DNA of 25,614 bases, from positions 1 to 25,614 of the forward strand of contig JBAXKC010000035.1 of NCBI GenBank assembly GCA_037137535.1, read 5' to 3'. Each line of letters starts with the position of its first letter. Positions within the stretch are counted from its first letter, which is position 1. Source of the stretch: a bacterium. GTDB taxonomy: Bacteria; Cyanobacteriota; Vampirovibrionia; Gastranaerophilales; JBAXKC01. The notes beneath the pieces are model-generated. The model made no database searches, had not been told where the DNA came from, and saw only the letters and a program-made list of their open reading frames with translations. The translations under genes and the position numbers were made by a program. Shown here piece by piece: positions 1 to 21,167 of the stretch.

Positions 1-53
1 TACATAGGAGTCACTAAGTTTTAAATAGGGGGATTTTTTGGGGGCATGTCAGT
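1..53 (-). mobile_element. Terminal fragment of a repeated element, probably an IS3-family IS end (reads TGACATGCCCCCAAAAAATCCCCC... outward from base 51)
   Basis: 1-53 is the exact reverse complement of 25560-25612. It begins 5'-TG followed by ACATGCCCCC, like the TGACCTGCCCC ends of IS3-family (IS407-group) elements. Its TGA is the stop of the tail fibre ORF. No transposase lies inside the window. Confidence 0.7.
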
Positions 54-1356: not shown

Positions 1357-1876
1357 AAATGGGTTCTCCACTGATACATAAGGCGATAATACTGCATCCG
1401 CCAATTATTGGTGTGTTAGTTATTACAGGTAAATCAAGTTCTAAGTTTTCAAGAACGGATCTTACATTTTTATACTCATCTACATAATTTGAAATTTTTT
1501 CGCTTAAATTTTCTTGATATGTTTGGCTAAGGGAGGTTAGTTTTAATTTAAAATGAAAAGCTCTTCCTCCGTATTCAAACCATTCTTTAAGTTCTACGTT
1601 AAAGCCGAGTGATTCAAGAGCAGTTATAACGCTCTTTTTAGTGCCTTTGTATTTATGATTTTTTATGGCATTTTTAATAAGATTTCTTTTTTCATAATCG
1701 GTTGTAACCATATTCCACCCTTCATTTCCTAAGATATGAAACTGGTCGGCAAGATGGATAAGAGCTGATTGTTCTGTGTTATCAACTAAATAAACAAGCA
1801 AGGGAGTTAAATCAATTGAGCCTATTTTGTCTATTAGTGCCATTATTGGGGAATTATTAATTGGGGAATCAAACAT
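1349..1876 (-). CDS. Phage tail/baseplate protein I (P2 gpI-like)
   Basis: HKYKGT...ALE, EWFEYGG and KNVRS motifs; lies between baseplate J and the fibre. Confidence 0.85.
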   Translation of the reverse strand: MFDSPINNSPIMALIDKIGSIDLTPLLVYLVDNTEQSALIHLADQFHILGNEGWNMVTTDYEKRNLIKNAIKNHKYKGTKKSVITALESLGFNVELKEWFEYGGRAFHFKLKLTSLSQTYQENLSEKISNYVDEYKNVRSVLENLELDLPVITNTPIIGGCSIIALCISGEPIYV

Positions 1877-3104
1877 TTATCACCACCGATGTGCAGTTTG
1901 CCCATTCATAAGGAGCCAATGCTTTATAGCTTGGGGAAATAAGATTTGCGTTATACACTCCGTTTACGGATAAAATTAGAGAAGAGATTTTAGCAGGCAC
2001 AATATCCTGAGCAAGTTTTGATTTTAGCGTTTGGACATAATTATTTAGTATTGAATTAATTTCAGCTTTTACAATAATAGAATCAGCCCAGGAAAAGAGC
2101 GTTACTTCAGCGTTTATACCGTAACTAACTTCTTGTGGAGATTTAATTATTACGTTATCGGTTAGCGGTCTTTTTGTTTCATCATTTAGTGCTGATTTAA
2201 CCATATCGAGAATTGCAGGAGTCGGATTTCTTGCAAGCGGATAAATCTCAACTGTCCCGGCTGGGGGAATAGTTACTTCGATATTTGAAACATTTTCACT
2301 AAAGGCAAGGGTTGCTTTTCCGTTTATGTAATCAATAGAGCCTGATGATATTTTTGCTCCGGTGAAAGTGTTGTTTTTATCTGCGGTGACTGAGTAACTA
2401 ACGCCATTTACTTTATAGCTTACAGTTGCAGGTAATTGCGGTGAAATAACGGCAACATCAATGATATCTTGATGAGCTGATTTTGTTAAAAACTCATAAG
2501 CTCCTTTACTTCCAGCGTTTGAATATTTTTCGGGAGCTTGTTTTATTCTTAATCTGTAAGTATCGTCGTCTTCTTCATCAGCCCCACCTGCTGTTATAAC
2601 TGTATTTTCAAGCTTTACTCCATCAGTTTCTGAGTTTAATGACAGATAACCATTTCCGATTATTCCTGCTTCTAAACATTCTGCAGATACTTCATCCGAA
2701 AACAAAGAGCCTGATTTAATTACAAGATTTTCAAGTAAACTAAATCCTGTTTTGCCGTCTATTACTGTACCAGCAGGTATTTCAATATCATAATCTTTAG
2801 TTTCAGTTATTGAAGCTTTAATTTTTGTTTTGGCTTTTTGGGCTTTAAGCCTTTCTACTCCAACGAGTTCACCCAAATAATCAAGCATAGGAAATGTAGC
2901 AAAATTAACAAGATTTTGTTTAGCTGCTTCTTGAATACCGATGCGGAGCAGGTTTTCTCTGTAAACTCCTACGTCAATAATAATTCGCTCTACTTGAGCA
3001 GGGTAAAGAGTTTTCCCTGTTTTTTCTTCGTAAAGAGCAATCCACTCTTGAGTAATTTTGTTTGCATCTCTGTCTATAAAGTTTGGTTCAGGCAGGTTAT
3101 TCAT
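1869..3104 (-). CDS. Baseplate wedge protein J (P2 gpJ / Mu gp47-like)
   Basis: LDYLG...GVER, GGADEEDDDTYRLRI, SNAGSKGAYEF and RPLTDNV motifs; synteny. Confidence 0.9.
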   Translation of the reverse strand: MNNLPEPNFIDRDANKITQEWIALYEEKTGKTLYPAQVERIIIDVGVYRENLLRIGIQEAAKQNLVNFATFPMLDYLGELVGVERLKAQKAKTKIKASITETKDYDIEIPAGTVIDGKTGFSLLENLVIKSGSLFSDEVSAECLEAGIIGNGYLSLNSETDGVKLENTVITAGGADEEDDDTYRLRIKQAPEKYSNAGSKGAYEFLTKSAHQDIIDVAVISPQLPATVSYKVNGVSYSVTADKNNTFTGAKISSGSIDYINGKATLAFSENVSNIEVTIPPAGTVEIYPLARNPTPAILDMVKSALNDETKRPLTDNVIIKSPQEVSYGINAEVTLFSWADSIIVKAEINSILNNYVQTLKSKLAQDIVPAKISSLILSVNGVYNANLISPSYKALAPYEWANCTSVVINV

Positions 3105-3460
3105 AAAATCAGCTCCAATTTCCCTGAAATATCTGTATTTTTGATTTTTCTTCCGATGTTAATTTTTACCTGTGAATTAATAATTTCTGCTGTAACAGAA
3201 GTTATTTCTACTCTTGGCTCCCATAATGCAATTGAATCAATAACTTCTCTGATGATATTAGGAACTGCTTCATTAACCGGAGAGTCTATATATTGCCAAA
3301 TATAAGAGCCAAATTCGGGGCGATGTGGGACTGAGCCTTTTTTAGTTGAGAGAATTATTAATATGCATTGGTCAATATCGTCTATTCCTTCAACTACAGA
3401 GGCTGTTTCATTGAGTTTTAACTGCCAATCGACAGATTTTATTTCATTTATGGTAGTCAT
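3101..3460 (-). CDS. Baseplate protein W / gp25 family
   Basis: ILSTKKGSVPHRPEFGS and WEPRVEI are hallmark GPW_gp25 motifs. Confidence 0.9.
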   Translation of the reverse strand: MTTINEIKSVDWQLKLNETASVVEGIDDIDQCILIILSTKKGSVPHRPEFGSYIWQYIDSPVNEAVPNIIREVIDSIALWEPRVEITSVTAEIINSQVKINIGRKIKNTDISGKLELIL

Positions 3461-4005
3461 TATTCCATAGCCTGATTAGGTTTTAAGGTTACTGAATTAG
3501 TTTCATTATGAGTATGCTTGTTAAACGTCCCTCTAATTTGTTGCATACTTCCTGTGTGGTCGATTATTTCGCCTTCAGATAAAACGCCTGCGGAGTTAAA
3601 AAACGTTCCTGTGTGGTTAATAATTCCTTGTATATTAATATTTGGACAAATGATGTTCAAGACGTGTTCAAGCCTGTCATACTCAAGTTCTGTAGAGTCA
3701 TTAAATTTTATTTTAAATTTATCTTTAGAAATAACGGGGCAGGTGTCTTGCTCTGAGTAAATAGCACCGAGTATTACGCCGTCTTCCAAGTTCTCATCCA
3801 TAAGGCAGGCAACGTGTTCGCCGATATCAGGTAGAAAATAGAATTTATCTTTGTAGGTTTTAGCTTGCAAAACAGGAAGCCAAAAGGATGGAATTCCGTC
3901 TGCATCTTGAAATTTAACAATTGCCGCCGCTTTTTTTTCATCAATTTCAGTTACTATGCCAAACTTGAGTTGGCTAGCCGGCAGTTTAGAGCCATTTTTT
4001 AACAT
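3460..4005 (-). CDS. Baseplate central spike V (P2 gpV / Mu gp45-like)
   Basis: OB-fold-like start (GIVTEID, WLPV, PDIGEHV, GVILGAIYS) and C-terminal HTH metal-binding HxH tip motif. Confidence 0.9.
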   Translation of the reverse strand: MLKNGSKLPASQLKFGIVTEIDEKKAAAIVKFQDADGIPSFWLPVLQAKTYKDKFYFLPDIGEHVACLMDENLEDGVILGAIYSEQDTCPVISKDKFKIKFNDSTELEYDRLEHVLNIICPNINIQGIINHTGTFFNSAGVLSEGEIIDHTGSMQQIRGTFNKHTHNETNSVTLKPNQAME

Positions 4006-8612: not shown

Positions 8613-8936
8613 ATGAATAGAAAAATTATTAAATATTATGAAACTCCTGAAGGTAAGCAGCCATTTGTAGTTTGGTTAAATTCTATTAAAGATTTAAGTT
8701 TTAAAAGAAGAATACTTTTAAGATTAAACAGATTAACTGATGGTAACTTTGGAGACTGTAAATCATTAGGTAATGGATTATATGAATTCAGACTTGATTT
8801 TGGTTCCGGTTATCGAATTTATTACACAGAAGAAGATAAAGTTATCATTATTTTATTTTCTGGCGGTGATAAATCCACTCAAGTGAGAGATATTGCTAAA
8901 GCTAAAAGTTATTTAAAAGAATACAGAGGTGATTAA
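8613..8936 (+). CDS. Type II TA toxin, RelE/ParE superfamily (HI1419-like addiction module killer)
   Basis: YYETPEGKQPF..WL, GNFGDCKSLGNGLYEFRLDFGSGYRIYY and GGDKSTQ.RDI.KAK match this family; toxin-first gene order. Confidence 0.9.
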   Translation: MNRKIIKYYETPEGKQPFVVWLNSIKDLSFKRRILLRLNRLTDGNFGDCKSLGNGLYEFRLDFGSGYRIYYTEEDKVIIILFSGGDKSTQVRDIAKAKSYLKEYRGD

Positions 8937-9261
8937 TATGAAAAAAAGTGATAAATTTCAAACATTTGATAATTTTATGCTTGAATATCTTAAAGACCCT
9001 GAAGAGTCAACAGCCTATTTGGATGCGGCAATTGAAGAGTATGAAATTGACGGTGATACAAGAGCTTTAATGATTGCGATACAAAGAGTTGCTGAAGTTA
9101 AAGGCGGAATAACAGAGCTGGCAAGAAAGACTAATTTAAACAGACAAAATTTATATAGAATTTTTTCTAATCAAGTAAGTCCACGCTTTGATACTCTTTC
9201 AAGAATACTTAGGGCTTTAGGTTATACCGTTTCTTTTAAAAAGCTTGCTAATGTTTCATAA
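8929..9261 (+). CDS. Type II TA antitoxin, Cro/C1 HTH (HI1420-like addiction module antidote)
   Basis: AYLDAA..., KGGITELARKTNLNRQNLYRIFS...PRFDTL..IL.ALG; overlaps the toxin stop. Confidence 0.9.
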   Translation: MINMKKSDKFQTFDNFMLEYLKDPEESTAYLDAAIEEYEIDGDTRALMIAIQRVAEVKGGITELARKTNLNRQNLYRIFSNQVSPRFDTLSRILRALGYTVSFKKLANVS

Positions 9262-9264
9262 TAT

Positions 9265-9786
9265 TTAAGCTCCAATATTAGCCCTATAAACAGCTAAAAC
9301 ATCAACCCCATCCACTTTATAAATATTTTCTAAAACATCTATTTCAAATATTTCTTCACCGCCGACAATAAGTTTTGCGTAATTTACGCTCATTGTTGTT
9401 TCATATTCTGCGTTATCCTGTGGTTTAAAAGTGCCGAGGGGGAATTCTTTAAATGTTCCTGAGATGTAGGCAATTGCAGGAACTTCTGCTAATCTTCCCA
9501 TACTGTTGTATGTTTCTAAACTTGCTCTTGCTTGAATTTGCACAGATTTAAAAGGATTAGCGGCTTTTTTAAGAACTTCTGTGTAAAGTGAGTTCCATTT
9601 AATTTTAGATTCTAGCTTGTCTATTCCTGCGAAGAACTCCGCAGAGCCTACCATTCCAAGGGCTTTATGTTCTGCCATCTTGTGCTTTATTTGAGGGAGC
9701 TGGATTTCTTCTGCCCTGCCGAGAAGATTATTCCCGTCCATATAGATATTGGCGTTTGTAAGCCTATTTATTTTAATTTTGCTCAT
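9265..9786 (-). CDS. Major tail tube protein (P2 gpFII-like)
   Basis: NANIYMDG...LGRAEEIQLP, EIFEIDVLENIYKVDGVDVLA..R..IG. Confidence 0.9.
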   Translation of the reverse strand: MSKIKINRLTNANIYMDGNNLLGRAEEIQLPQIKHKMAEHKALGMVGSAEFFAGIDKLESKIKWNSLYTEVLKKAANPFKSVQIQARASLETYNSMGRLAEVPAIAYISGTFKEFPLGTFKPQDNAEYETTMSVNYAKLIVGGEEIFEIDVLENIYKVDGVDVLAVYRANIGA

Positions 9787-9983
9787 TTATTTACCTCAGA
9801 AACTTTTCTTTTTTTTAAAAGTTTACATTTTTGAATTTCAATTTCTTCGTAGTGCATAATGACAAGTTCATTTCTTAGTGCTTCTATCAAAGGACAATCG
9901 GTGTTATTCAGGCATTCAAAGCATACGTCGTCATTATCAGCGTAAACGTCGATACCGCCTTTTTTATTAACTTTTACTTTCAT
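9783..9983 (-). CDS. Small Cys-rich hypothetical protein (CxxC-x5-C...C)
   Basis: 66 aa ORF joined by ATGA overlaps to both the sheath and tube genes. Confidence 0.65.
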   Translation of the reverse strand: MKVKVNKKGGIDVYADNDDVCFECLNNTDCPLIEALRNELVIMHYEEIEIQKCKLLKKRKVSEVNK

Positions 9984-11206
9984 TTCCCTAGGTTCCTTAA
10001 TAGTTCAATATTAATAAAGCTTTCAAAAGTTATGCGTTCAGCCGGAGTTGGAGGCATATACTCTATATCGAACAATAGATGCCCCTCAGCGGTCGACGTG
10101 GGAGGGTTTTTGTCGGGGTTGAATTTGCATTTACCGTCTATTAATGCCCCTCTGCCAATAAGAGAGCGAATAAAGGCGTTTACTGATTCGCAAATAGAGT
10201 CTATTAGGCCGTTATCAATGGGAAAGTCTATAAATTGAAGCATAGAATATTCAACACTTTCATGAAGAATATCAGCAGTTCTTCGTATATTAATAAAGTT
10301 TGTCGGGTGAGTAGAAGCAGGATAAGCTGAACTTCTATTGCCCCAAGTCCTGAAACCGCTGCCAAAGGAGTTGAAAATACTTAAAATACCTGCTTCGTTA
10401 AGAAGATTAACTTCACTGTTCGGGTCATTAATCATTGAAGTCAATTGTCTTTCAACTCCTATAATTCCTTTAATCTCGGTATTACTAGGTGACCAGTGAT
10501 AACCCTTTTCAATATCTTTAGCTGCTATAACGCCTGCTAATCTTTGAGAATAGGGTTCCAGCTTAACCGAATCAGTTACAGTATCGTAAACTTTGAGTTG
10601 CGGATAACAAAAAATAAGTCTATCTGAACTAAAATTAAAGTTTATTGTTCCATCAGGTCCTCTTCCTGTGATGGCATTTTGAACGGTTGTACCGACAGGA
10701 GCATCAACTAAACCTATTGCCCTGATATTTCCTGCTATTGCGTTTATTTCAGCAGCGATAGCTTTATCTTCACAATATTTTGGGACAATTAGTGTTTTTG
10801 GAAAGAAGCCAAATATTGAATAGCTGTCTTTAAGAGCTTGTAAGCCTGTTCTTTTACCTTGTTCGTTAACTCCGCCGATGATATCAGAGAGTTTAACATC
10901 TGATATAGTTGGGTGAATATCAGGGTTAAAGACATTTATTACAATTATTATTCCTGCTCCCTGATCAAAGATGGCATTAAGAGCTGAGGGAATGGTAAAT
11001 CCGCTTGTTGGTTGCCCGAAGTATTTAGCGGCATCTTTTTCATTTGTAATTAAAACGGGTTGATTAACTGTTTTAAATTCTGTTTCGATTGTATCAACGG
11101 GAGCTGTTCCTACTAAACCAATTACAGCAGTTTTAACGGTTCTAATAGGTCTTGCCCCTTTTGTAATTTCTATTGTTTCAACTCCGTGCAAGAAATTTGC
11201 AGGCAT
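9980..11206 (-). CDS. Contractile tail sheath protein (P2 gpFI-like)
   Basis: FLHGVE, TAVIGLVGTA, WSPSN, GFRTWGNR, FINIRRT and PPTPAERITF motifs. Confidence 0.95.
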   Translation of the reverse strand: MPANFLHGVETIEITKGARPIRTVKTAVIGLVGTAPVDTIETEFKTVNQPVLITNEKDAAKYFGQPTSGFTIPSALNAIFDQGAGIIIVINVFNPDIHPTISDVKLSDIIGGVNEQGKRTGLQALKDSYSIFGFFPKTLIVPKYCEDKAIAAEINAIAGNIRAIGLVDAPVGTTVQNAITGRGPDGTINFNFSSDRLIFCYPQLKVYDTVTDSVKLEPYSQRLAGVIAAKDIEKGYHWSPSNTEIKGIIGVERQLTSMINDPNSEVNLLNEAGILSIFNSFGSGFRTWGNRSSAYPASTHPTNFINIRRTADILHESVEYSMLQFIDFPIDNGLIDSICESVNAFIRSLIGRGALIDGKCKFNPDKNPPTSTAEGHLLFDIEYMPPTPAERITFESFINIELLRNLGK

Positions 11207-11209
11207 TTT

Positions 11210-11626
11210 TTAATCATCCTCATATTCTAAAACTGTTGTTGTGGTGGCAAAATTTATTGAATACTGCCAAATACCGTTGTCTTCACCGATAAATTCTTCT
11301 TTTAGCGGAAGAAGTTTTGAGCAGTTTTCGGGAATAAAGCCTGTTAAAACCTGCCTTGTTTTATCAAGGTAATAATATGCTCCTTCATAGCTTCTTAGGT
11401 TTTTCATTACAACAGTTATGCTAAATTCAAGCTTTTTCTCTTGTAAAATGCAGCCTATGCTTTTAGATTCGGAGTAGTTTGCTCCTTGATAATGAACAAG
11501 AATAGCTCCTTTGGGGTGAATGAGCTTAAAGTCGGCAGGTTTTTCAGGGAAACCCTCAATTTTCAGGTCATTGATTTTTATTTTCAGAAGCTCAATAATT
11601 TGGGTTTCAACATTTTTAATATTCAT
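11210..11626 (-). CDS. Tail completion/terminator protein (Gp37 family)
   Basis: HPKGAILVHYQG motif; lies between the gp36-like gene and the sheath. Confidence 0.7.
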   Translation of the reverse strand: MNIKNVETQIIELLKIKINDLKIEGFPEKPADFKLIHPKGAILVHYQGANYSESKSIGCILQEKKLEFSITVVMKNLRSYEGAYYYLDKTRQVLTGFIPENCSKLLPLKEEFIGEDNGIWQYSINFATTTTVLEYEDD

Positions 11627-12047
11627 TTAAACGCACTTTAGAAAAGCTTCTGTCAGAACGGTCTTTATTTGTTCTAAATATTGCTGATTCGCTGATATTA
11701 GCTTTTAGCTCAATACCAAGAGCAATAATTCCTTTTTGAATTTGCTCAAGCATTTTTATGGAGTTTTTATACTTTTCGTTTATGGCATCAGGTGTATCAG
11801 TTTGAAATCTTCTTGAATAAAGCCTAAAAACAGATAAATCAACGGCAATAATTTTAATTACACCTGGAACAAGGGTTAAAGGTAAAATGTATCTGCCTCT
11901 TAAATATCCGTCAATAAGTGTTTCGGAATAAATTATTGCTTCATCGACAATAACAGTATCTGTTTCACCTGTTTGATTATCGTCTGTGAGCTGGATTAAG
12001 GTATCTTTTGATATTTGTTTTTGAATATCAGCTAAAGTGCAGTACAT
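11616..12047 (-). CDS. Head-tail adaptor, Mu gp36/DUF1320-like
   Basis: MYCT..D, LIQLTDD, IDGYLRGRY.LPL, Y...IKMLE.I.KG motifs. Confidence 0.88.
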   Translation of the reverse strand: MYCTLADIQKQISKDTLIQLTDDNQTGETDTVIVDEAIIYSETLIDGYLRGRYILPLTLVPGVIKIIAVDLSVFRLYSRRFQTDTPDAINEKYKNSIKMLEQIQKGIIALGIELKANISESAIFRTNKDRSDRSFSKVRLNEY

Positions 12048-12382
12048 TATATTCCTCTTACCAGTCGTATAATCTCTCCTGCTTCGGCATTATCAAGGGA
12101 ATAGCCGTTTGCTTCTCCAGTTGTAAAAGCAATAGCGTAGCCGTTTAAGTCTGATGCAACTTTAGCCCCTTGAATTATTGTGCCTGCGGTTCTGACTAAA
12201 ACAATACCATTTAGAATAACGGGAGCGAATTGTCCTGCTTCGATTTCAACTTCCGAAACGCCGAGAGCTTTAGCTCCTTCTATGCAGTAATTTCCGTCAA
12301 AGCCTATAAATCTGTGTTTGTCGATATTTGCAGGAGCCTTTATTGAATCTGTCAAAAGAGGTTTATACAGTTTTTCCATCAT
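12047..12382 (-). CDS. Capsid cement/decoration protein (DUF2190-like)
   Basis: Small Gly/Ala-rich beta protein (ALGVS, G.KVASD..G.A, A.AGEII) downstream of the capsid gene. Confidence 0.7.
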   Translation of the reverse strand: MMEKLYKPLLTDSIKAPANIDKHRFIGFDGNYCIEGAKALGVSEVEIEAGQFAPVILNGIVLVRTAGTIIQGAKVASDLNGYAIAFTTGEANGYSLDNAEAGEIIRLVRGI

Positions 12383-12611
12383 TACCTCCTTCAGCAGGTG
12401 TTTCAGTATTTTGAACTATATTTTCAGTATTTGCAGAAGTTTCTTTAGCCGTTTTCACCGCTTTTTTGGCTTCCTGTTTTTGTTCAATTATCGGCACAAG
12501 ATAATCTGCAAGCTTTGCTGCTTCATTTTCCGTAAGCTCAATAATGTCTCCTTCTTTGAATAACGTCTTATTATGCAGAATATCAGTACCTTTTACTGTA
12601 AATTTAGGCAT
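12363..12611 (-). CDS. Hypothetical virion-associated protein (Mu gp35-like position)
   Basis: ILHNKTLFKEGDIIELTENEA N-terminus plus low-complexity tail; coupled to the capsid gene. Confidence 0.6.
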   Translation of the reverse strand: MPKFTVKGTDILHNKTLFKEGDIIELTENEAAKLADYLVPIIEQKQEAKKAVKTAKETSANTENIVQNTETPAEGGNDGKTV

Positions 12612-13525
12612 TAGTTAGTTCCTCCTATTAAAAATCCTGCTTCAGGTCCAACCATAAATGGTGTGTAAATGTCTGTTGCTCTTATGTATTTGAGTTTATT
12701 GCCTTCTTTTCTGTATTCGTCGACGTTAAGAGCATTTTTCTTTTTAACTGTATAGGCAAAAGCAGGGTCATATTCTGTTCTTGAAGATAGGGTTGAGGTG
12801 TAGGCTAGAATTATGTTATCACTCCACACTTTAACGAAATTGCCGTTTTCATCTACAAAGACAGATTTTCCTATGACAATATTAGGTATTTCGAAGATTT
12901 CTTTAAGAAAATTTAAAGTGACCAATTTATTCTGAGTATCACTTATCAAACCTTTAATTTGTTTGTGTCTTTTTAATCTTTTCCAGCAATCGTGTCCTAT
13001 TACCATCGTGTTTGGGTCTTGTGCTATTTTACTTGCGATAGCATCTTTAGCATCTTCAATTACGTTGTATGGTTCTGATAAATCACTGGTGAATTTAGAC
13101 GTCCCCGATAACAATATTTTATTCCCGGAAGCGTAATTGTCGGGATTCTGTACTAAATCGGCACATTGCTTTTCGTGCTTAAGTCTTAAACCTTCTGTTA
13201 CTACATTTGTTGCGTGGAGTTGAAGTTTTACTTTTTTAGATTCTTCTTCTTCCCTGTAATCGATGGGGTAGGCTAAATCATGTTCTGTTAAGGTTGCACT
13301 CTTTTTGTTAAAGCCTTTAGGACTCATAACGTTTGAGTTTGCTCTTATGGCTCTTTCTGTGTTATAGACTTGAAAAGCTTCTTTGTTAAATTCAAAGATA
13401 TCAATCTTTTCTGTTTCTGATTCTATTGTAGGAAAGAGAGCGTCAGCTATAAAAGCGTTATTGCTGTAACCTCTTGCTACTTCAGATAAATACGCATTTA
13501 TCCGTAAATCTTCTAATCTGCCCAT
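12611..13525 (-). CDS. Major capsid protein (HK97 fold, capsid-E-like)
   Basis: 304 aa, LSEVARGY...FIADALFP, PNTMVIG; directly follows the protease/scaffold gene; AGGAG RBS. Confidence 0.85.
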   Translation of the reverse strand: MGRLEDLRINAYLSEVARGYSNNAFIADALFPTIESETEKIDIFEFNKEAFQVYNTERAIRANSNVMSPKGFNKKSATLTEHDLAYPIDYREEEESKKVKLQLHATNVVTEGLRLKHEKQCADLVQNPDNYASGNKILLSGTSKFTSDLSEPYNVIEDAKDAIASKIAQDPNTMVIGHDCWKRLKRHKQIKGLISDTQNKLVTLNFLKEIFEIPNIVIGKSVFVDENGNFVKVWSDNIILAYTSTLSSRTEYDPAFAYTVKKKNALNVDEYRKEGNKLKYIRATDIYTPFMVGPEAGFLIGGTN

Positions 13526-13533
13526 GGTCGCTC

Positions 13534-14463
13534 CTATTTATATATCTTCAATAAAGCATCTTTAAACGGTATGTTTTCTTTATCTGCAAGTGTTTTTGCT
13601 TCTTTGTAGATGGCAAGACTTTCTTCGCTTGCATTTGCAAATGAAATAACCTCGTCATCAGTTTTCACTTGCTTGTTTTTTGTAGCTATTTCATTAAATT
13701 CAACTTGTTTTGGAAGAGATTTAATAAATTCTTTAAAGGCTGTAATTTTATCTGTTCCTTTAAGGTTTTCAAGAACGTTTAAAACGGTGTCTTTTTGAGT
13801 CGGGGTAATAACTCCGCTTGATATTTGGGTATCTACAAAGAGATTAAACTCGTCTTTGCGGATTTGTTCTTTTAGCGTAAAAAGCTCTGTTTCAGCGTAA
13901 ATTCTTGCAGTTTTTTCATCTTGAAATTTAGAAATACTCTCGCTTAAAACTGTAATACTTTGCTGAAGCGAAGCGACAAGGGTTTTATCGGTGTTTTTTT
14001 CGCTGAAGATATTAAACTGTTGTTTTAAATCATCGAGCTGAGCTTGAACATTAGCTGTTTCAGCGTTTTCAAAGATATAGGTATCAGATTCGCCTTCTTT
14101 AAATTGAACAGAGGACATTCCTTTAACTTGAGGTATAGCTGCTCCAAGGAATGATACGGCTTTTAAGTAAGGCTTTTTCCCTTCAAGATTTCTGTATATT
14201 TCAACTGAGATTTTTTTGTATTTGCCGTTTTTTACAAAATCTTTCAGTTCTTCGGATACATCTTTAAATTGAGCCGTCAGCTTGCCGTTTTCAGCTTTTA
14301 ATTCAGATACCCAGCCGTAAGCAGGACCGCTTTGCTCATGGTCTAGCGTAATTGGTGATTCACAAAAAGTCGGGTCATAGTTATCAGCTAGGATTTCAAT
14401 ATCTTTTTCCGTAAAACTTCCTTGAGGATATGAGCCGGCTTTGAAGATTTCAAAGTGTTTCAT
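13534..14463 (-). CDS. Prohead protease/scaffold (Mu gpI-like)
   Basis: EIFKAG, PITLDH, PAYGWV, YKKISVE, VSFLGA..P.VKGM protease domain followed by a coiled-coil scaffold region. Confidence 0.85.
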   Translation of the reverse strand: MKHFEIFKAGSYPQGSFTEKDIEILADNYDPTFCESPITLDHEQSGPAYGWVSELKAENGKLTAQFKDVSEELKDFVKNGKYKKISVEIYRNLEGKKPYLKAVSFLGAAIPQVKGMSSVQFKEGESDTYIFENAETANVQAQLDDLKQQFNIFSEKNTDKTLVASLQQSITVLSESISKFQDEKTARIYAETELFTLKEQIRKDEFNLFVDTQISSGVITPTQKDTVLNVLENLKGTDKITAFKEFIKSLPKQVEFNEIATKNKQVKTDDEVISFANASEESLAIYKEAKTLADKENIPFKDALLKIYK

Positions 14464-14464
14464 T

Positions 14465-14644
14465 CTAAATTCCTATCGGTTGTTTTGTAATAGTTCTTAA
14501 TGCTGCGTTAATAACTGTAATTCCTATGGCTTGAGTAGCAGGGTCAATAATGAAGCCTGTTTGAGATTGAACAACTATTGCCATGGCTGATACAGCATTT
14601 ACCCAGAAGGTTTTTGATTGTAAAAAGGATTTTTTCTCTGCCAT
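14465..14644 (-). CDS. Holin-like small membrane protein (59 aa; missed by the ORF track)
   Basis: Own translation: MAEKKSFLQSKTFWVNAVSAMAIVVQSQTGFIIDPATQAIGITVINAALRTITKQPIGI*. Two hydrophobic segments, SKTFW and LR.IT motifs common in small phage holins, AAGGAG RBS, stop 1 nt before the protease ATG. Confidence 0.75.
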   Translation of the reverse strand: MAEKKSFLQSKTFWVNAVSAMAIVVQSQTGFIIDPATQAIGITVINAALRTITKQPIGI

Positions 14645-14691
14645 TTTATTTCTCTCCTTGCAAAAAAATTAAACACGTTGCGATAAAAGGC

Positions 14692-14791
14692 AGTATAGGA
14701 GTTTTTTTATTACGATTTCAACGCTGTTAATATACGCCGTTAATGGAGTATATTAACGGCGTTGAAATGAAGCATTCAGATGTGTCATCTT
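14692..14791. promoter_or_regulatory. Symmetric bidirectional promoter/operator region
   Basis: 21-bp inverted arms (14715-14735 and 14748-14768, one mismatch). Each outer end holds an outward TTGAAA; 18 nt downstream lie TATACT (- strand, 14692-14697) and CATCTT (+ strand, 14786-14791). Confidence 0.65.
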
Positions 14792-14820
14792 TAAAAAATA
14801 TACGAAGGAAAAATAATTTT

Positions 14821-15078
14821 ATGACTGAAACCGCTTTATTAATCGAACTTGTGAAAAATATCGGATTTCCTGCCGTAATTTTTGCAATCTGGTACATCTA
14901 CCACAAAGCACAGGTTAAAACTTTTCAAGATGTGCTTAACAACAACTTTAAAGTTTTAAAAGACCTTCTTGAAACAAATCAATATCATGCGGCACTGCTA
15001 TCAAGAATAGAGCTGAAAATCGACTCTAATTTATGGTGTCCGATATTAAAAAAAGGTTTGAAAAACAATGAGGAGTAA
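14821..15078 (+). CDS. Single-TM membrane protein with coiled-coil tail (holin/YvrJ-like)
   Basis: NIGFPAVIFAIWYIYH hydrophobic helix. Probable start is ATG 14821 (GAAGGA upstream), since the listed 14743 start lies inside the regulatory repeat. Confidence 0.6.
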   Translation: MTETALLIELVKNIGFPAVIFAIWYIYHKAQVKTFQDVLNNNFKVLKDLLETNQYHAALLSRIELKIDSNLWCPILKKGLKNNEE

Positions 15079-15081
15079 TTG

Positions 15082-15327
15082 GTGAATATTGAAAGAATGC
15101 AGCACAAAGGGCAATTAGCTGAATGCAGAAAGAAGTTTAAAACTCTTGATACAGAAGCATCAGGCCTCATCATTCTTGTTCGTTCCTTTTTAAATCCTTA
15201 CGAGGAAGACGTTACAAAACTTGATGTTGAAAAAGCTTTCCATTCTATGAGCAGATTGCGTGATGTTATTAATGAAATGAAATTACTTGGCACAAAAATT
15301 CAGAAAATGGAGGAGGATCTTGACTAA
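15082..15327 (+). CDS. Hypothetical coiled-coil phage protein
   Basis: GAGGAG RBS, probable GTG start, coupled to its neighbours upstream of the terminase genes. Confidence 0.6.
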   Translation: MNIERMQHKGQLAECRKKFKTLDTEASGLIILVRSFLNPYEEDVTKLDVEKAFHSMSRLRDVINEMKLLGTKIQKMEEDLD

Positions 15328-15742
15328 AAAGCATTTGCACTACAACGAAGCCGAAAGATGTTTTGTGTATGAGCAAATGACTATTGAAGAAATAGCTTCA
15401 AGGCTTAAGCTTGGTGAAAGGACTGTCAGGTACTGGAAAGATGAAAATGGCTGGGATGATAAAAAGAAAAAATACATACAGTCAAAAATAGCTTTTCACG
15501 AAGAACTTTATGAATTTGCAAAAAAACTTATGCGTTCCATTAATCAAGACCTTGAGAACGGAGAAAAAGTAGACCCCGGCAGAATGTATGCATTTACAAG
15601 AATGCTTCCTCTAATTACAAAAATCAAAGAGTACGAAGATGTAGCGGTTAAAAAAGAGAAAATTCAAGAACCTAAAGGCTTAACGGAAGATGTAATAAAA
15701 CTAATAGAAAAAGAAGTTTTAGGAATGAATAGCGAGGAGTAA
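15320..15742 (+). CDS. Putative terminase small subunit (N-terminal HTH, DUF1804-like)
   Basis: TIEEIASRLKLGERTVRYWKDENGWD HTH; directly upstream of TerL; TTG start at 15320 after GGAGGAGG. Confidence 0.7.
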   Translation: MTKKHLHYNEAERCFVYEQMTIEEIASRLKLGERTVRYWKDENGWDDKKKKYIQSKIAFHEELYEFAKKLMRSINQDLENGEKVDPGRMYAFTRMLPLITKIKEYEDVAVKKEKIQEPKGLTEDVIKLIEKEVLGMNSEE

Positions 15743-17088
15743 TGCAGCTTAACAAGTATTTCTTACCCTATCAACAAAGATGGCTGAACGATAACAGCAA
15801 AGTTAAAATATGGGAGAAGTCCAGAAGAATTGGTGCTACTTACGTTCAGTCCTATGAAGATGTGAGAGATTGCGTAGCTAAAAAGGTTCCTGCTGTTTGG
15901 TTTTCCTCCGCCGATGAGTCTGCTGCTAAAGAATATATTTTGTATTGTGAAAAATGGGTAAAGCTTTTTAATATTGCGGCAAAGCCTTTAGGTAATGTTG
16001 TTATTGATTCTGAAAAAGATATTAAAGCCTTTGTTATTGAATTTTCAAACGGTACAAAGATTCATGCATTATCTTCTAATCCTAAAGGTTTTAGGTCTAA
16101 AGGCGGAAAAGTAATTCTGGATGAGTTTGCACACCATTTAAGCCAGGATGAACTTTGGACAGCAGCAAGACCTTGCGTTACCTGGGGTTTCCCTTTAAGA
16201 ATTTTATCTACCCACAACGGACAAAATTGCAGGTTTTACAAATTTATTGAAGAAGTAAACAAAGGCAATTCCAAATGGAGCTTGCATACTACACCTATTC
16301 AATTAGCGGTAACAGAGGGTTTAGCCGATAAAATCTACGGTAGAGTAACTACAGATGAAGAAAAAGAAGCTTGGATTCAAGAACAGAGGGAAGATTGCTT
16401 TGACGAATATACCTGGAGGCAGGAATATTGCTGCGAAGCTATTGATGAAGCAAGCTCTTTTCTAACCTATGAGCTGATAAACTCTTGCGAAGCCGATGAT
16501 TTGTATAAAATTTTATCAGAAGTAAAAGGCGACTTATTTGTCGGAATGGACATCGGCAGAAAAAAAGACCTTTCTGTCATTTGGGTTTTAGAGCTTTTAG
16601 GAAAAGTTAAATACACCCGAATGATAAAAGAAATGGAAAAAACTCCTTTTCATATCCAGCAGGAAGTTTTAGCAAATATTTTAAAGCACAAGACTTTAAG
16701 GCGTTGCTGCATAGATGCTACAGGACTTGGAATGCAACTGGCAGAAACAGCTCAAAGACAATTCGGCAAATACAGAGTTGAGGCTATAACCTTTACCAAC
16801 AAAGTAAAAGAAGAACTTGCGTATAATCTTAGAACTAATTTTGAGGATAAAACTGTATATATCCCGGCTGAACATCAAATCAGAGAAGATTTGCATTCTG
16901 TAAGGCGAGTAACATCATCCTCCGGTAATATTCGATTTGACGTAGAAAAGTCAGAAGCATCAGGTCACGCTGACAGGTTTTGGGCTCTTGGTTTAGCACT
17001 TCACTCCGCCGAATCAAATATCGGACCAATAAATATTATTACAAGGCGAAGAAGAGAATCTTACGAAATTACAAAAAATTACCTCTAA
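15742..17088 (+). CDS. Terminase large subunit (Mu gp28-like)
   Basis: LPYQQRW, KSRRIGAT (Walker A), VILDEFA (Walker B), GMDIGRKKD, IDATGLG and HADRFWAL nuclease motifs. Confidence 0.95.
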   Translation: MQLNKYFLPYQQRWLNDNSKVKIWEKSRRIGATYVQSYEDVRDCVAKKVPAVWFSSADESAAKEYILYCEKWVKLFNIAAKPLGNVVIDSEKDIKAFVIEFSNGTKIHALSSNPKGFRSKGGKVILDEFAHHLSQDELWTAARPCVTWGFPLRILSTHNGQNCRFYKFIEEVNKGNSKWSLHTTPIQLAVTEGLADKIYGRVTTDEEKEAWIQEQREDCFDEYTWRQEYCCEAIDEASSFLTYELINSCEADDLYKILSEVKGDLFVGMDIGRKKDLSVIWVLELLGKVKYTRMIKEMEKTPFHIQQEVLANILKHKTLRRCCIDATGLGMQLAETAQRQFGKYRVEAITFTNKVKEELAYNLRTNFEDKTVYIPAEHQIREDLHSVRRVTSSSGNIRFDVEKSEASGHADRFWALGLALHSAESNIGPINIITRRRRESYEITKNYL

Positions 17089-17210: not shown

Positions 17211-18635
17211 ATGTCAGATAAAAATTTATCAGAAGAAATAGCCACAAGAAAACGCTCATACAATTTCTATAATATTGGAATGATGCTCCCTGATCCTGAT
17301 TCTGTTTTAAAAAAGCAGGGCAAAGATATCAGGATATATAAAGAGCTGTTATGTGACCCGCACGTTTGGGCTTGCGTTCAATCAAGAAAAGCAGGCGTTT
17401 TATCCTTAGAGTGGGAAATAAATAGAGGCAAAGATAAAACAGAACAATCACAGTTTATTGAAAACTTCTTTAAATCAATAGACCTTTATTCTGTCATATC
17501 AGAGATTTTAAACTCAACTCTGTTTGGCTTTCAGCCCCTTGAAATATTATGGCAACAATCGGGCAATATGATTTTACCTGCCGAAATAAAGGCAAAACCG
17601 CCTGAGTGGTTTTGTTTTGATGATGATAATAAATTAAAACTGCGAACTAAAGAAAATTACTACGGTGAAGATTTGCCTGACAAGAAGTTTCTTTGCCCTC
17701 AGTACAATCCGAGTTATGAAAACCCATACGGAGAGCGAACTTTATCAAGAGTATTCTGGCCTGTTTCTTTTAAAAAGGGCGGAGTAAGATTTTGGACAAT
17801 ATTTACAGAAAAATACGGAATGCCTTTTTTAGTAGGCAAACACCCGAGAGGTTCAACTGCTGAAGAATCAGGAAATTTAGCTGATATGCTTGATGCGATG
17901 GTGGTAGACGCTATTGCGGTGATACCTGATGATAGTTCTATTGAAATACTTGAAGGAGCAAAAGGCTCTTCTGCTGATGTTTTTGAAAAACTTATAGACA
18001 AAATGAATGCTGAAATATCAAAAGCAGTTCTCGGGCAGACTTTAACCACCGAACTTGGCAGCAAAGGCAGTTTCGCTGCTTCTAAAACTCATATGGATGT
18101 TAGAAAAGAGATTATAACGGGAGATAAAAAGCTTGTTGAAAAAACTTTAAATCAGCTCATTCATTGGATTTATTCGCTAAATTACAGCGAAAAAGATATT
18201 CCTCTTTTTGAAATGTATGAAGATGAAGACGTTGATTTAACCTTATCTCAAAGAGATAAAATCCTCAGTGACACAGGCGTTAAATTCACAAAAGCATATC
18301 TAATGAAGGCTTACGGGTTTGATGAAGAAGATATTGAAATATCGGGAGTTTTAACAGAACCCCAAAAAAAGACTAATTTTAAACAATTTTCTCAAGAAAA
18401 AAGTGAATTTCCTGATCAGCAGGCAATAGATAATTTTTCTTATTCTGATAAAGAACTGCAAAAACAGGCAGAGAGTATTTTAGCTCCTGTTATTAAAAAA
18501 ATTAAAGATGGTAATTCTTATGAAGAGATATATGCTCAGCTTTCAGAGCAGGGATTGAATACGGAAGAGATTGAAGCACAGCTGCAAAAAGCCCTCTTTA
18601 TATCTGAAATATGGGGGCGACTAAATTGTGAGTGA
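17211..18635 (+). CDS. Portal protein (Mu gp29/DUF935-like)
   Basis: DPHV...QSRK, NPYG, FTEKYGMP..VGK, EISKAVLGQTLTT, GSFAASKTH motifs. Confidence 0.93.
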   Translation: MSDKNLSEEIATRKRSYNFYNIGMMLPDPDSVLKKQGKDIRIYKELLCDPHVWACVQSRKAGVLSLEWEINRGKDKTEQSQFIENFFKSIDLYSVISEILNSTLFGFQPLEILWQQSGNMILPAEIKAKPPEWFCFDDDNKLKLRTKENYYGEDLPDKKFLCPQYNPSYENPYGERTLSRVFWPVSFKKGGVRFWTIFTEKYGMPFLVGKHPRGSTAEESGNLADMLDAMVVDAIAVIPDDSSIEILEGAKGSSADVFEKLIDKMNAEISKAVLGQTLTTELGSKGSFAASKTHMDVRKEIITGDKKLVEKTLNQLIHWIYSLNYSEKDIPLFEMYEDEDVDLTLSQRDKILSDTGVKFTKAYLMKAYGFDEEDIEISGVLTEPQKKTNFKQFSQEKSEFPDQQAIDNFSYSDKELQKQAESILAPVIKKIKDGNSYEEIYAQLSEQGLNTEEIEAQLQKALFISEIWGRLNCE

Positions 18636-19554
18636 AAAGATTATGAATAAAGTTTTATGCGGAGACAGTTTAAATGTTTTAAAAACTCTGCCTTCTCAAA
18701 GTGTTGATTGCACAGTTACATCTCCGCCATATTGGGCTCTTAGAGATTATGGAACAAATCCTGTTGTTTGGGACGGAAAAGAAGATTGCAGTCATTTATG
18801 GGATAAAAAGAATTTTTGTACTCTCTGTGGAGCCTGGAAAGGTGAATTAGGACTTGAAAAAGACTTTAATCTGTATATTAAGCACCTTTGCGATGTTTTT
18901 GAAGAAGTAAAAAGGGTTCTTAAAGATACAGGAACTCTATGGGTAAACATAGGAGATACTTATTCTTCAAAAAAGCTTCTGTTATTGCCTTTTAGATTTG
19001 CAATAGAAATGGTAAGCAGAGGTTGGACTGTTAGAAACGTAATAATATGGCAAAAACCCAATTGCACCCCGACAAGTGCTAAAGACAGGTTTACCGTAGA
19101 TTTTGAATACTTCTTTTTCTTCACTAAAACAAAAGATTACTATTTTGAACAACAAATCGAGCCGTTTAAAGAGTCCACCATTAAAAGATGTAAAGGCGGC
19201 TGTAATGAGAATAAAGGCTCTTTTTATAAAGGATTAAGTAAAGAAAACTTTGAAAAAATACAGCAGAAAATATTAAGCGGTAAATTAAAAGGCAAAAATA
19301 AAAGAGCAGTATGGAATATTGCTACATCAAACTTTGGCGGTGCTCATTTTGCAGTTTATCCTCCAAAACTTATTGAAACGCCAATATCGGCAGGTTGCCC
19401 CGAAGGTGGAATAGTCCTTGACCCTTTTATGGGAAGCGGAACAACTGGAGTAGTCGCTAAAAGCCTAAACAGAAACTGGCTTGGTATTGAGCTTAATCAG
19501 GAATTTGCAAATATGGCTGAGGATAGAATAAATGGACTTAAAATATCTCATTAA
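18628..19554 (+). CDS. Orphan amino-methyltransferase, beta class (N4-C/N6-A)
   Basis: N-terminal TSPPY catalytic motif, C-terminal VLDPFMGSGTT SAM-binding motif, HFAVYP. Confidence 0.92.
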   Translation: MSEKIMNKVLCGDSLNVLKTLPSQSVDCTVTSPPYWALRDYGTNPVVWDGKEDCSHLWDKKNFCTLCGAWKGELGLEKDFNLYIKHLCDVFEEVKRVLKDTGTLWVNIGDTYSSKKLLLLPFRFAIEMVSRGWTVRNVIIWQKPNCTPTSAKDRFTVDFEYFFFFTKTKDYYFEQQIEPFKESTIKRCKGGCNENKGSFYKGLSKENFEKIQQKILSGKLKGKNKRAVWNIATSNFGGAHFAVYPPKLIETPISAGCPEGGIVLDPFMGSGTTGVVAKSLNRNWLGIELNQEFANMAEDRINGLKISH

Positions 19555-20335
19555 CTTACCGCCCGAAAAAGCAATAAAATTTCTTAAAAACAAAGGTTAT
19601 GAATTTTCTTGGGACTGGGAAGATACTTGGCAATCGGCTCATCAGAAGGCTTTTACAGTAGCGAAAGTTATGAAACAAGACATCCTATCTGATATCAGAG
19701 AAGCAGTAGAATCTGCAATGGAAAATGGTTTAACACTTGAACAGTTTAAAAAAGAGCTTGAACCAAAGCTAAAAGACAAAGGCTGGTGGGGCATTGTTTC
19801 AGGAAAACCCGAAGACGTTAGAGCAGAGCTTTTAAAAAGAAATCTTATTCAAAAAGCTGATTTAATCCCAGGCGGAGATGAAGTTATAACAGTTCAGCTT
19901 GGCTCTCCTTGGAGATTAAAGACAATTTACAGAACTAATATTCAAACCTCATATATGGCAGGGCGGTATAAAGAACAAATAGAAAATGTTGAAAACAGAC
20001 CCTACTGGCAATATGTGGCGGTTATGGATAAAAAAACAAGACCTGCTCATTCAATGTTAAACGGAAGAATATTTAGATTTGATGACCCTTTCTGGGATAG
20101 TTTTTACCCACCAAACGGCTGGGGGTGTAGGTGCAGAGTCAGGGCATTATCTGAAGATAATGTAAAAGAACGTAAATTAGGTGTTGATAGTTCACAATTA
20201 TCAGAGGAATTAAGATTAGTTTCAAAGAAAACAGGAGAATTAAGACCTGTAGCCGTTTACACAGACCCGTTAACAGAACACAAAATATCCCCTGATGTCG
20301 GGTGGAGCTATAACCCGGGTAAAGAGAATAAATAA
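19532..20335 (+). CDS. Head morphogenesis protein MuF (Mu gp30 / SPP1 gp7 family), short form
   Basis: AFTVAKV, RLKTIYRTN, YWQYVAVMDKKTRPAH, PPNGWGCRC, W.YNPG motifs; no C-terminal toxin extension. Confidence 0.92.
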   Translation: MDLKYLINLPPEKAIKFLKNKGYEFSWDWEDTWQSAHQKAFTVAKVMKQDILSDIREAVESAMENGLTLEQFKKELEPKLKDKGWWGIVSGKPEDVRAELLKRNLIQKADLIPGGDEVITVQLGSPWRLKTIYRTNIQTSYMAGRYKEQIENVENRPYWQYVAVMDKKTRPAHSMLNGRIFRFDDPFWDSFYPPNGWGCRCRVRALSEDNVKERKLGVDSSQLSEELRLVSKKTGELRPVAVYTDPLTEHKISPDVGWSYNPGKENK

Positions 20336-20351
20336 TATAGGAGAGAAATAT

Positions 20352-21167
20352 ATGGCAGTTGATAAAAAATCGTTATTAAATTGGGTCGGAGGAAAAAGAC
20401 TTTTAAGAAAAACCATAGAACCGTTAATCCCTACTGATATCCTTTCATATATAGAGCCTTTCGGCGGCGGTGCGTGGATTTTGTTCTATAAAGAGAAATG
20501 GGCGGATTTAGAAATCTATAATGACCTTGACGGGAGGCTTGTAAACTTATTTAGAATTGTAAAATATCATCCTGAAGCGTTAAAGGAGGAATTAAGATAT
20601 CTTTTAGGCTCTCGAGAAATGTTTATGCAGTTTTTAAAGATGGAACCTATAACCGATATTCAAAAAGCAGTAAAATTCTTCTTCCTTATAACCAGATCTT
20701 TCGGAGGCAGAGGCGAGAGTTTCGGTACTGTTAAAAAATCAGCCGGCGGAGCTTGTAAAAGCCATGCCAATACGCTTTTAAAAATTGATGCGATTTATAA
20801 AAGGCTTGATAAGGTTATGGTTGAAAACAGAGATTTTGAAAAGTTAATAACGCAGTATGACCACGAGGGAGCGTTCTTTTACTGCGACCCTCCATATACT
20901 TTCGGCTGCGGATATGAAACAACGTCAACCAAAGACTTTGACCACGAAAGACTCAGAGATTTATTGAAAAACATCAAAGGCAGATTCTTGCTTTCTTATG
21001 ACGATTCAGAAAAAGTCAGAGAACTTTATGCAGGGTATGAGATGATTGCAGTAGAAAGACAAAATGGCATAAACAATAAAAGTCCTAAGAACAAAATGTT
21101 CAAAGAACTTATTATTGCAAATTATCCGATTGTGGAGATTTTTAACGGTGATAGAAATAAAGGTTGA
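20352..21167 (+). CDS. Orphan Dam-like N6-adenine methyltransferase (D12 class, alpha)
   Basis: WVGGK, YIEPFGGGA, YNDLD and YCDPPY motifs; start ATG 20352 after AGGAG. Confidence 0.92.
   Translation: MAVDKKSLLNWVGGKRLLRKTIEPLIPTDILSYIEPFGGGAWILFYKEKWADLEIYNDLDGRLVNLFRIVKYHPEALKEELRYLLGSREMFMQFLKMEPITDIQKAVKFFFLITRSFGGRGESFGTVKKSAGGACKSHANTLLKIDAIYKRLDKVMVENRDFEKLITQYDHEGAFFYCDPPYTFGCGYETTSTKDFDHERLRDLLKNIKGRFLLSYDDSEKVRELYAGYEMIAVERQNGINNKSPKNKMFKELIIANYPIVEIFNGDRNKG

Follow-up and report, generated by a model that had tools for sequence, protein, structure and literature searches.

The window analysed here is the whole of a 25,614-nucleotide contig (JBAXKC010000035.1, hereafter C35) from a bacterium of the order Gastranaerophilales. 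The element under study is the intergenic region at positions 14692 to 14791, from which two operons of phage genes are oriented outwards. Annotation with PHROGs and Pfam identified a myovirus late region, and by its genes the window represents the late part of a Mu-like transposable prophage. Between the two operons lie two outward-facing promoters, an inverted repeat and three copies of the motif ACGCYGTTAAT, two of them direct with a 13-nt period (units A and B) and one inverted (unit C). The features of the element are as follows.

14692..14697, minus strand: -10 hexamer of the leftward promoter, TATACT (AGTATA on the plus strand), from sequence reading and a promoter scan
14716..14721, minus strand: -35 hexamer of the leftward promoter, TTGAAA, with an 18-nt spacer to the -10, from sequence reading and a promoter scan
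14715..14768: the whole inverted repeat, with 21-nt arms, one mismatch (T/C at 14725) and a 12-nt spacer
14715-14735: left arm of the inverted repeat, ATTTCAACGCTGTTAATATAC, from sequence reading
14748-14768: right arm of the inverted repeat, GTATATTAACGGCGTTGAAAT, separated from the left arm by the 12-nt spacer, from sequence reading
14721..14731, plus strand: operator unit A, ACGCTGTTAAT, abutting the leftward -35
14734..14744, plus strand: operator unit B, ACGCCGTTAAT, central, forming a perfect 11-nt inverted pair with unit C
14752..14762, minus strand: operator unit C, ACGCCGTTAAT on the minus strand, abutting the rightward -35
14762..14767, plus strand: -35 hexamer of the rightward promoter, TTGAAA, from sequence reading
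14783..14791, plus strand: extended -10 of the rightward promoter, TG-n-CATCTT (TG at 14783-14784, CATCTT at 14786-14791), 18 nt past the -35, identified by eye

The two -35 hexamers are 40 nt apart, and the outer units overlap or abut them by one base. The leftward promoter was the best promoter-like site between 14300 and 15200 (10 of 12 consensus positions); the rightward promoter was not listed in this consensus scan because its -10 hexamer, CATCTT, is weak. A second scan, for the two-sided promoter layout described below, preferred TTTAAA-N18-TAATTT on the right, which ends 1 nt before the start codon. This site was set aside by hand for TTGAAA-N18-CATCTT, which matches the position of the promoter in related phages: CATCTT aligns with TATCTT of the relatives, which carry TATCTT or TATTCT at this place. 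The rightward leader of the window is about 23 nt (14792-14820).

The repeat and the motif were assessed against chance. Exactly one inverted repeat with at least 20 matches out of 21 and a spacer of at most 20 nt was present in the window, and none of 100 first-order Markov simulations reached 20 matches of 21 (the maximum was 18). A repeat search of the window showed that the arms can also be defined as 27 nt with 89% complementarity. Allowing one mismatch, ACGCYGTTAAT occurred five times in the window, compared to 0.83 expected, and none of 100 shuffles reached five. The repeat, the three motif copies and the two outward promoters were thus found where the first-pass annotation had placed them, and far beyond chance. 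That annotation had also proposed a search of the host genome for the motif. The whole 2.9-Mb assembly contained seven exact copies, three of them at 14715-14768; the reversed control pattern was equally frequent (also seven copies), hence there are no further sites in the assembly above chance. With up to one mismatch, the sole other pair within 60 nt genome-wide was a weak pair on contig C1, and the prophage has no further copy of the motif. An Rfam scan of 14300-15200 returned two sub-threshold rows at chance level and nothing else.

The genes next to the element and the candidate regulator discussed below are:

14465..14644, minus strand: 59-residue open reading frame (ORF), first of the leftward operon, with a good to strong ribosome-binding site and no family match
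13534..14463, minus strand: head maturation protease (phrog_976, E 7.7e-60)
14821..15078, plus strand: conserved 85-residue protein, first of the rightward operon (phrog_23321, E 1.5e-42), with a hydrophobic N-terminus
C33:22626-22901: Mor/C-family activator of 91 residues at the end of the early operon (Pfam PF08765, 39.4 bits versus a cut-off of 24.9, E 6.7e-10)

Beyond the protease, the leftward operon encodes the major head protein, connector proteins, sheath, tape measure, baseplate and fibres, down to base 49. The rightward operon continues after the 85-residue gene with an 82-residue ORF, a TerS-like helix-turn-helix (HTH) protein, TerL, the portal, a methyltransferase, a MuF-like minor head protein (phrog_220), a second methyltransferase and a neck protein; it reaches about 21582, and host-like TPR and glycosyltransferase genes are found from 22585. 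Proteins of a related viral contig matched both the window and a second contig of the same assembly, C33, where the gene order is S24/HTH repressor, MuA, MuB, GemA, a small ORF, the Mor-family gene, HU, an M15 endolysin and tail-fibre genes up to the contig end (domain matches DDE_2, HTH_Tnp_Mu_2, AAA_22 and GemA). The fibre genes of C33 run on into the fibre gene with which the window opens. The early genes on C33, the shared fibre end and the synteny with relatives indicate that the two contigs belong to one Mu-like transposable prophage, and the hallmarks of such a phage were found: a MuA-type DDE transposase, a MuB-type ATPase, GemA and the MuF-like head protein. All structural, packaging and lysis genes would belong to one or the other of the two divergent late operons.

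The Mor-family gene is the only one of its kind in the early region of the prophage and lies about 19 kb from the operator. A profile of five homologues matched the Mu activator C in the Protein Data Bank (PDB; 9l0x, E 3.8e-4) and, more weakly, Mor (1rr7, E 0.67); a PDB search with the single sequence found neither Mor nor C. An AlphaFold model based on 25 homologues had a mean pLDDT of 86 and was all-helical with a C-terminal helix-turn-helix, and its top six PDB matches were chains of Mu C and Mor. We accept the C33 protein as a member of the Mor/C family on the sequence evidence, with which the evidence from the fold is consistent. Mor diverges much faster than the late proteins: its identity was 31–56% among five phages, compared to 70–75% for TerL, sheath and major head protein. 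For the Mor of this prophage, no relative above 43% identity was found in 401 genomes of the class.

To compare the element between phages, 100 related loci were collected, 20 of them viral (from a search with the 85-residue protein) and 80 kept out of 91 genomic ones (from a search with its alignment). Most relatives are in assemblies titled Gastranaerophilales, Melainabacteria or Cyanobacteriota, with a few under other bin labels, and the assemblies bearing related phages belong to the same order as the host of the window. The loci were scanned for the layout [-10]-17..19-[TTGAAA-like]-interior-[TTGAAA-like]-17..19-[-10], which was present in 85 of the 100, with 13 misses and two dubious cases; a stricter earlier scan, with exact TTCAA/TTGAA ends or tighter -10 criteria, had missed 29. 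By eye, the layout was recognized with a degenerate left -35 in L070, L080, L081, L100, L102, L103 and L114. In L075 and L095 the upstream sequence is different, L107 is truncated by the end of its contig and L111 is ambiguous; in L026, L028, L053 and L106 the layout was not seen by eye.

Operator statistics were obtained from 86 operators (the 85 relatives and the window), which have 61 distinct interiors. The left spacer was 18 nt in 83 and the right spacer in 73 of the 86. The -35 was exactly TTGAAA on the left in 70 and on the right in 69, and the left -10 was TATACT, TATAGT or TAGACT in 82; the right -10 was more diverse (TAAACT, TAGACT, TATTCT, TATCTT and others). Fixed outer hexamers and spacing around a variable core point to two core promoters that share an operator, and the element is very probably such a divergent pair of late promoters. 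The first-pass annotation had named conservation in homologous loci as a check. What is conserved is the sequence and spacing of both promoters, and the interior between them is specific for the phage.

The operator of the window itself had no counterpart in several collections. Searches of a phage collection, with the DNA of the region and with the 85-residue protein, gave no matches, and a search of the taxonomic family of the window returned this genome only. Exact-pattern scans of viral and metagenome contigs gave no copy of the operator, and such scans would miss diverged copies. With no copy of the operator in these exact scans and no relative above 43% identity for the Mor of this prophage, uniqueness agrees on both sides.

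In the relatives, the region between the rightward -10 and the first gene often contains a stable hairpin with a T-rich tract behind it (45 of 60 distinct relatives, e.g. L061, L067, L109 and L093; a count without a chance control). These hairpins are mostly 21–50 nt before the start codon and look like a leader terminator or attenuator; the leader of the window does not have one. The 59-residue ORF has no counterpart at this position in the relatives read, where the protease directly follows the promoter. The 85-residue protein on the other side was the most conserved of the proteins compared (mean identity of 80% in 32 phages), with an invariant LKDLLETNQ.H motif and no Pfam family; a holin-like role is a guess.

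The interiors are not of arbitrary length. The 61 distinct interiors fell into classes of 36–40 nt (18 interiors), 49–52 nt (13) and 59–65 nt (28), with single interiors of 73 and 85 nt, and these classes fit a period of 12–12.5 nt with a circular concentration of 0.72–0.73. A sub-family with identical flanks has interiors of 49, 61, 73 and 85 nt (L087, L017, L115 and L091, respectively). Within interiors, the direct recurrence of 4-mers peaked at lag 12 (37.9 per thousand, versus 0–10 at most other lags), with a further peak at lags 23–26. The interiors thus fit arrays of three to seven units of about 12 nt, in which the window would be a three-unit member. The 10 nt beside each -35 tend to mirror each other: the mean match was 6.3 out of 10 within a phage and 3.7 between phages, and at least 8 out of 10 was reached in 24 of the 61 operators versus 3% of the cross-phage pairs. 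The outer units of the window match at 9 out of 10. Over the whole interior the mirror identity had a median of 0.67, and the long palindrome is not a family trait: two of the 61 operators reach the 0.85 of the window. In L099, L048, L078 and L054, dyads of 12–16 bp abut each -35 and are centred at -43 or -43.5 relative to assumed starts. Many interiors are A+T-rich with central T tracts. Words from an element's own operator were no commoner elsewhere in the contig than in shuffled controls (six elements), which is consistent with one operator per phage.

The similarity of operators was compared with that of the proteins encoded by the same phages. The sample comprised 32 phages (496 pairs), with Mor taken from searches of 45 assemblies and same-contig Mor genes located 17–24 kb from the operator; 28 were same-contig pairs, counting the window with its Mor on the adjoining C33, and four were paired because each gene was present in a single copy. 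Phages were dropped if Mor was interrupted by stops (L109) or incomplete (L051 and L070), if the protease fragment was of insufficient length (L082) or if GemA or MuB lay outside the fetched stretch (L071 and L092), and genomes with several copies of Mor or of the 85-residue gene on different contigs were never paired. Apart from Mor, 11 proteins were included: GemA, MuB, the ORF between GemA and Mor, a 72-residue Ner-like HTH protein, a 225-residue early protein, the AAA protein, the second transposase, the 85- and 82-residue proteins, the TerS-like protein and the protease.

Operator similarity tracked the distant Mor better than it tracked the flanking genes or the neighbours of Mor. The Spearman correlation with operator identity was 0.74 for Mor, 0.64 for GemA, 0.59 for the protease, 0.57 for MuB, 0.52 for both the 85- and the 82-residue protein and 0.51 for the TerS-like protein. 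The partial correlation between operator and Mor, given any other protein, was 0.48–0.62; the reverse partial correlations, given Mor, were between -0.07 and 0.09. At an operator identity of at least 0.8, Mor identity was at least 0.81 in all 21 pairs, and at an operator identity below 0.6 it was at most 0.68 in all 323 pairs. In the same 323 pairs the flanking proteins were up to 0.86–0.99 identical (0.99 for the 85-residue protein and 0.93 for the protease).

Single comparisons showed the same pattern. L120 shares its operator with L074, L016 and L124 (identity 0.98–1.0) and its Mor is 0.92–0.94 identical to theirs, but GemA is only 0.67–0.68 and the TerS-like protein 0.66 identical. In the opposite case, L096 has late genes that are near-identical to those of L101 and L093, with a different operator and a different Mor; the Mor and operator of L096 were paired as single copies. 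For the ORF between GemA and Mor the partial correlation was -0.13, and its identity was only 34% in some same-operator pairs. Discordance with the operator was also seen for the Ner-like HTH protein (40% identical between L120 and L074) and the 225-residue protein (40% identical between L101 and L093). Overall, each of the 11 other proteins had at least one clear discordance with the operator and Mor had none.

The first-pass annotation had postulated one regulator, encoded outside the window, that switches the packaging and structural genes on together. A fitting gene was found in the Mor/C-family gene on C33, and for binding and joint activation the argument is comparative. On this evidence it is probable that the C33 protein binds the operator and activates both promoters, so that one Mor-bound operator would fire both late operons together. 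The element would consist of two outward-facing core promoters of the sigma-70 type, each with TTGAAA, an 18-nt spacer and a -10 hexamer, on either side of a 40-nt operator of three units of about 13 nt that carry ACGCYGTTAAT. With the outer two units mirrored, each promoter would have the same unit directly upstream of its -35. After induction, Mor, produced from the end of the early operon, would bind the units and, by analogy with Mor and C of Mu, recruit or stabilise the host RNA polymerase simultaneously at the two promoters. Head, tail, fibre and lysis genes would then be on the leftward transcript, and packaging, portal and head-completion genes on the rightward one.

A more specific version, which we put forward tentatively, treats the operator as a countable array. 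Each unit of about 12 nt would dock one DNA-binding domain of a Mor oligomer, the complex would span both -35 hexamers, touch both polymerases and fire both promoters, and the number of units (three to seven) and their sequence would evolve with the activator.

Several observations weigh against activation by Mor through such units. We infer Mor binding, the dependence of the promoters on an activator, the oligomeric state, the role of the central unit and the transcription starts; the latter are predicted near 14685 (minus strand) and 14798 (plus strand). The structural matches of the Mor model are weak (best E 0.012, TM about 0.4). The near-consensus TTGAAA hexamers, unlike the Mor- and C-dependent promoters of Mu, may allow basal activity, and the repeats could then repress. 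Strong dyads (at least 6 of 8 pairs) at -43 or -43.5 were present on about 14% of the 122 promoter sides, and across the family there is a second dyad mode at -49 to -50 relative to predicted starts. Near -43.5 in the window only the TTAA core is symmetric, so its units are not dyads of the Mu type; the one strong dyad of the window, that of units B and C, has its centre near -50 of the rightward promoter, with no leftward equivalent. The interiors of L017, L115 and L091 consist mostly of direct 12-nt repeats, which are not obviously explained by a symmetric dimer. As for the co-variation, the comparison was confined to Mor and the 11 proteins named above. With a 6-mer similarity measure, GemA correlated with the operator as well as Mor did (0.72 and 0.71, with partial correlations of 0.33 and 0.30, respectively). 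The phages are related and the pairs are non-independent, with few independent swaps underlying the co-variation, and in four of the 32 phages, including the informative L096, Mor and operator are on different contigs and were paired as single-copy genes.

The last points leave room for another phage-encoded DNA-binding protein, for example a small early protein that has escaped recognition or the S24/HTH lysogeny repressor of C33, that would bind the units, with Mor co-varying as part of the same exchangeable early module. The 6-mer result for GemA, which adjoins Mor, would be expected of such a module, and the repressor is outside the comparison. In the relatives the S24 repressor is not found between the second transposase module and MuA, which indicates that the content of the early region differs between phages. 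We nevertheless consider a binder other than Mor unlikely: each of the 11 proteins was discordant with the operator at least once, and the 11-mer was not found in the repressor and early-promoter region of C33, even with two mismatches. The TerS-like HTH protein, which the first-pass annotation had listed as a candidate, was ruled out as the binder, as it is only 66% identical in phages with the same operator.

A further reading takes the promoters as intrinsically active and the units as a repressor operator, at which a protein bound between or against the -35 hexamers would silence the late genes in the lysogen. The position of the units, abutting or overlapping the -35 hexamers by one base, is compatible with this, and so are the TTGAAA hexamers and the leftward TATACT, which are near consensus, unlike the activator-dependent promoters of Mu in the excerpts of the work cited (PMC2582627). 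We give this reading a small chance. The 18-nt spacer, kept on the left in 83 and on the right in 73 of the 86 operators, is non-optimal and typical of activator-dependent promoters (19 nt in Pmom, according to the same excerpts; PMC2582627), the units lie upstream of the -35 and not over the spacer, the -10 or the start, and the co-varying protein belongs to a family of activators. It is very improbable that the promoters are real and the repeats lack a regulatory protein partner, being duplication remnants or UP-element-like DNA: the A+T-richness and central T tracts of many interiors would suit this, but neutral DNA would not be expected to show a 12-nt periodicity, quantised lengths, mirrored outer units and a strict phage specificity co-varying with a regulator encoded far away.

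Finally, the palindrome could act as a DNA structure (a cruciform) or as a site where DNA is cut or recombined (a pac site, or a recombination site tied to the inversion of a segment), as the first-pass annotation had offered in part; either strand of the repeat can form a hairpin of -21.6 kcal/mol (z = -9.07) and the element lies within a segment, from head closure to TerL, that is oppositely oriented among relatives, but with a median mirror identity of 0.67 and two of 61 operators as palindromic as that of the window the long hairpin is not conserved, the element is about 5.4 kb and 2.3 kb distant from the end points of the inversion, between which no inverted repeat of convincing quality was found, and Mu-type phages package from the genome end and not from an internal pac site, so that we regard this reading as extremely unlikely. 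An independent assembly of the likely source run also counts against it, as one contig spans 8000-18000 with no differences and no alternative joint; contigs of four DNA runs were compared, and those of the other runs did not reach the operator. This comparison is uninformative on expression or inversion, and a search for RNA runs containing this DNA listed none.

The segment in question (9265-17088) begins with the head-closure gene, includes the two-way promoter and extends as far as TerL; its orientation relative to the modules on either side differs between relatives. The window has the portal after TerL, and the tail chaperone and tape measure after head closure; the same order was found in G006 (two copies), G007, G011 and G030. 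The arrangement is reversed in G001 (L036 and L037), G003 (L034 and L035) and G020, where the tail chaperone and tape measure come after TerL and the portal comes after head closure. By the strand relation between Mor and the 85-residue gene, 21 same-contig pairs had this other order and five that of the window.

Some further properties of the prophage were noted. An HU-family gene directly follows Mor (C33:22987-23262). HU was rejected as a family-wide partner of Mor: none was found within 2.5 kb of Mor in 27 relatives, and none anywhere in four viral contigs. Upstream of MuA and MuB lies a second transposase-like gene, for a product of about 660 residues with Mu-transposase C-terminal and rve domains, together with its own TniB-like AAA protein, at C33:14296-17873 and in the early regions of relatives (L161-L165; G004 566-3884). 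The phage family thus carries two transposase/ATPase pairs per element, and the prophage of the window adds an integrase-like ORF and the S24 repressor in this region. Further copies are present on the small contigs C70 and C81. Within the late operons, two DNA methyltransferase genes (18628-19554 and 20295-21167) are placed among the portal, MuF and neck genes. A toxin-antitoxin-like cassette (8613-9261, plus strand; a Gp49/HigB-like protein and an HTH 'antidote' protein) lies on the opposite strand inside the tail operon and is flanked by perfect 16-nt inverted repeats (8629-8644 and 9253-9268).

If joint activation by Mor is correct, the whole late programme of this phage family would run from one two-way switch, versus the cascade and dispersed promoters of Mu. 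The stepwise change in unit number, about 12 nt at a time, could then help to understand how oligomers of Mor/C are arranged on DNA. If the array of countable units holds as well, the core promoter would be a fixed scaffold on which dozens of activator/operator pairs, mutually orthogonal, have arisen naturally. The 61 distinct operators, with matching Mor variants and a fixed core promoter, would amount to a natural experiment in which an activator and its DNA site change specificity together. For phages of the Melainabacteria, the little-studied and non-photosynthetic relatives of cyanobacteria, the analysis also gives a first view of gene control. A literature search found no account of gene control in Melainabacteria phages or of Mu-like Melainabacteria phages, and none of the literature matches listed described a divergent arrangement of Mor late promoters. 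Activation of late genes by Mor-type proteins in Mu-like phages is known already, and the modular two-way layout appears to be undescribed.

Among known systems, the right operator of phage lambda (PRM/PR, with three cI operators) also has adjacent sites for one phage regulator, and the bound protein activates one promoter by touching region 4 of sigma. The lambda sites repress one promoter while activating the other, and the Ogr-dependent late promoters of phage P2 have single dyads near -55; in both cases the protein family differs from Mor, and the comparison is one of analogy only.

The closest parallel is phage Mu itself, for which the following holds according to the excerpts of the reports cited. 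Mor and C of Mu bind a 16-bp imperfect dyad centred at -43.5, adjoining the -35 region (PMC4390567, PMC2582627), and on promoter DNA they are tetramers that contact the alpha C-terminal domain, sigma region 4 and the beta flap-tip helix (10.1101/2025.05.02.651988). The prophage studied here shares with Mu its transposable nature and a Mor/C-family activator encoded at the end of the early region (PMC4390567, PMC2582627, 10.1101/2025.05.02.651988). Both would use the host polymerase of the sigma-70 type with a (here putative) activator site directly upstream of or touching the -35, and both have a non-optimal distance between -35 and -10 (19 nt in Pmom, PMC2582627; 18 nt here). Mu uses a two-step cascade of Mor and then C, whereas one Mor-family gene is present here, and the five separate one-way promoters of Mu are replaced by one shared two-way operator. 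In the late promoters of Mu, as described in these excerpts, the -10 is present and a typical -35 is absent (PMC2582627), whereas the -35 hexamers here are near consensus and conserved in 70 and 69 of the 86 operators. Finally, each Mu promoter has a single 16-bp imperfect dyad at -43.5, whereas the operators of this family fit three to seven units of about 12 nt, and the units of the window are asymmetric and not dyads of the Mu type.

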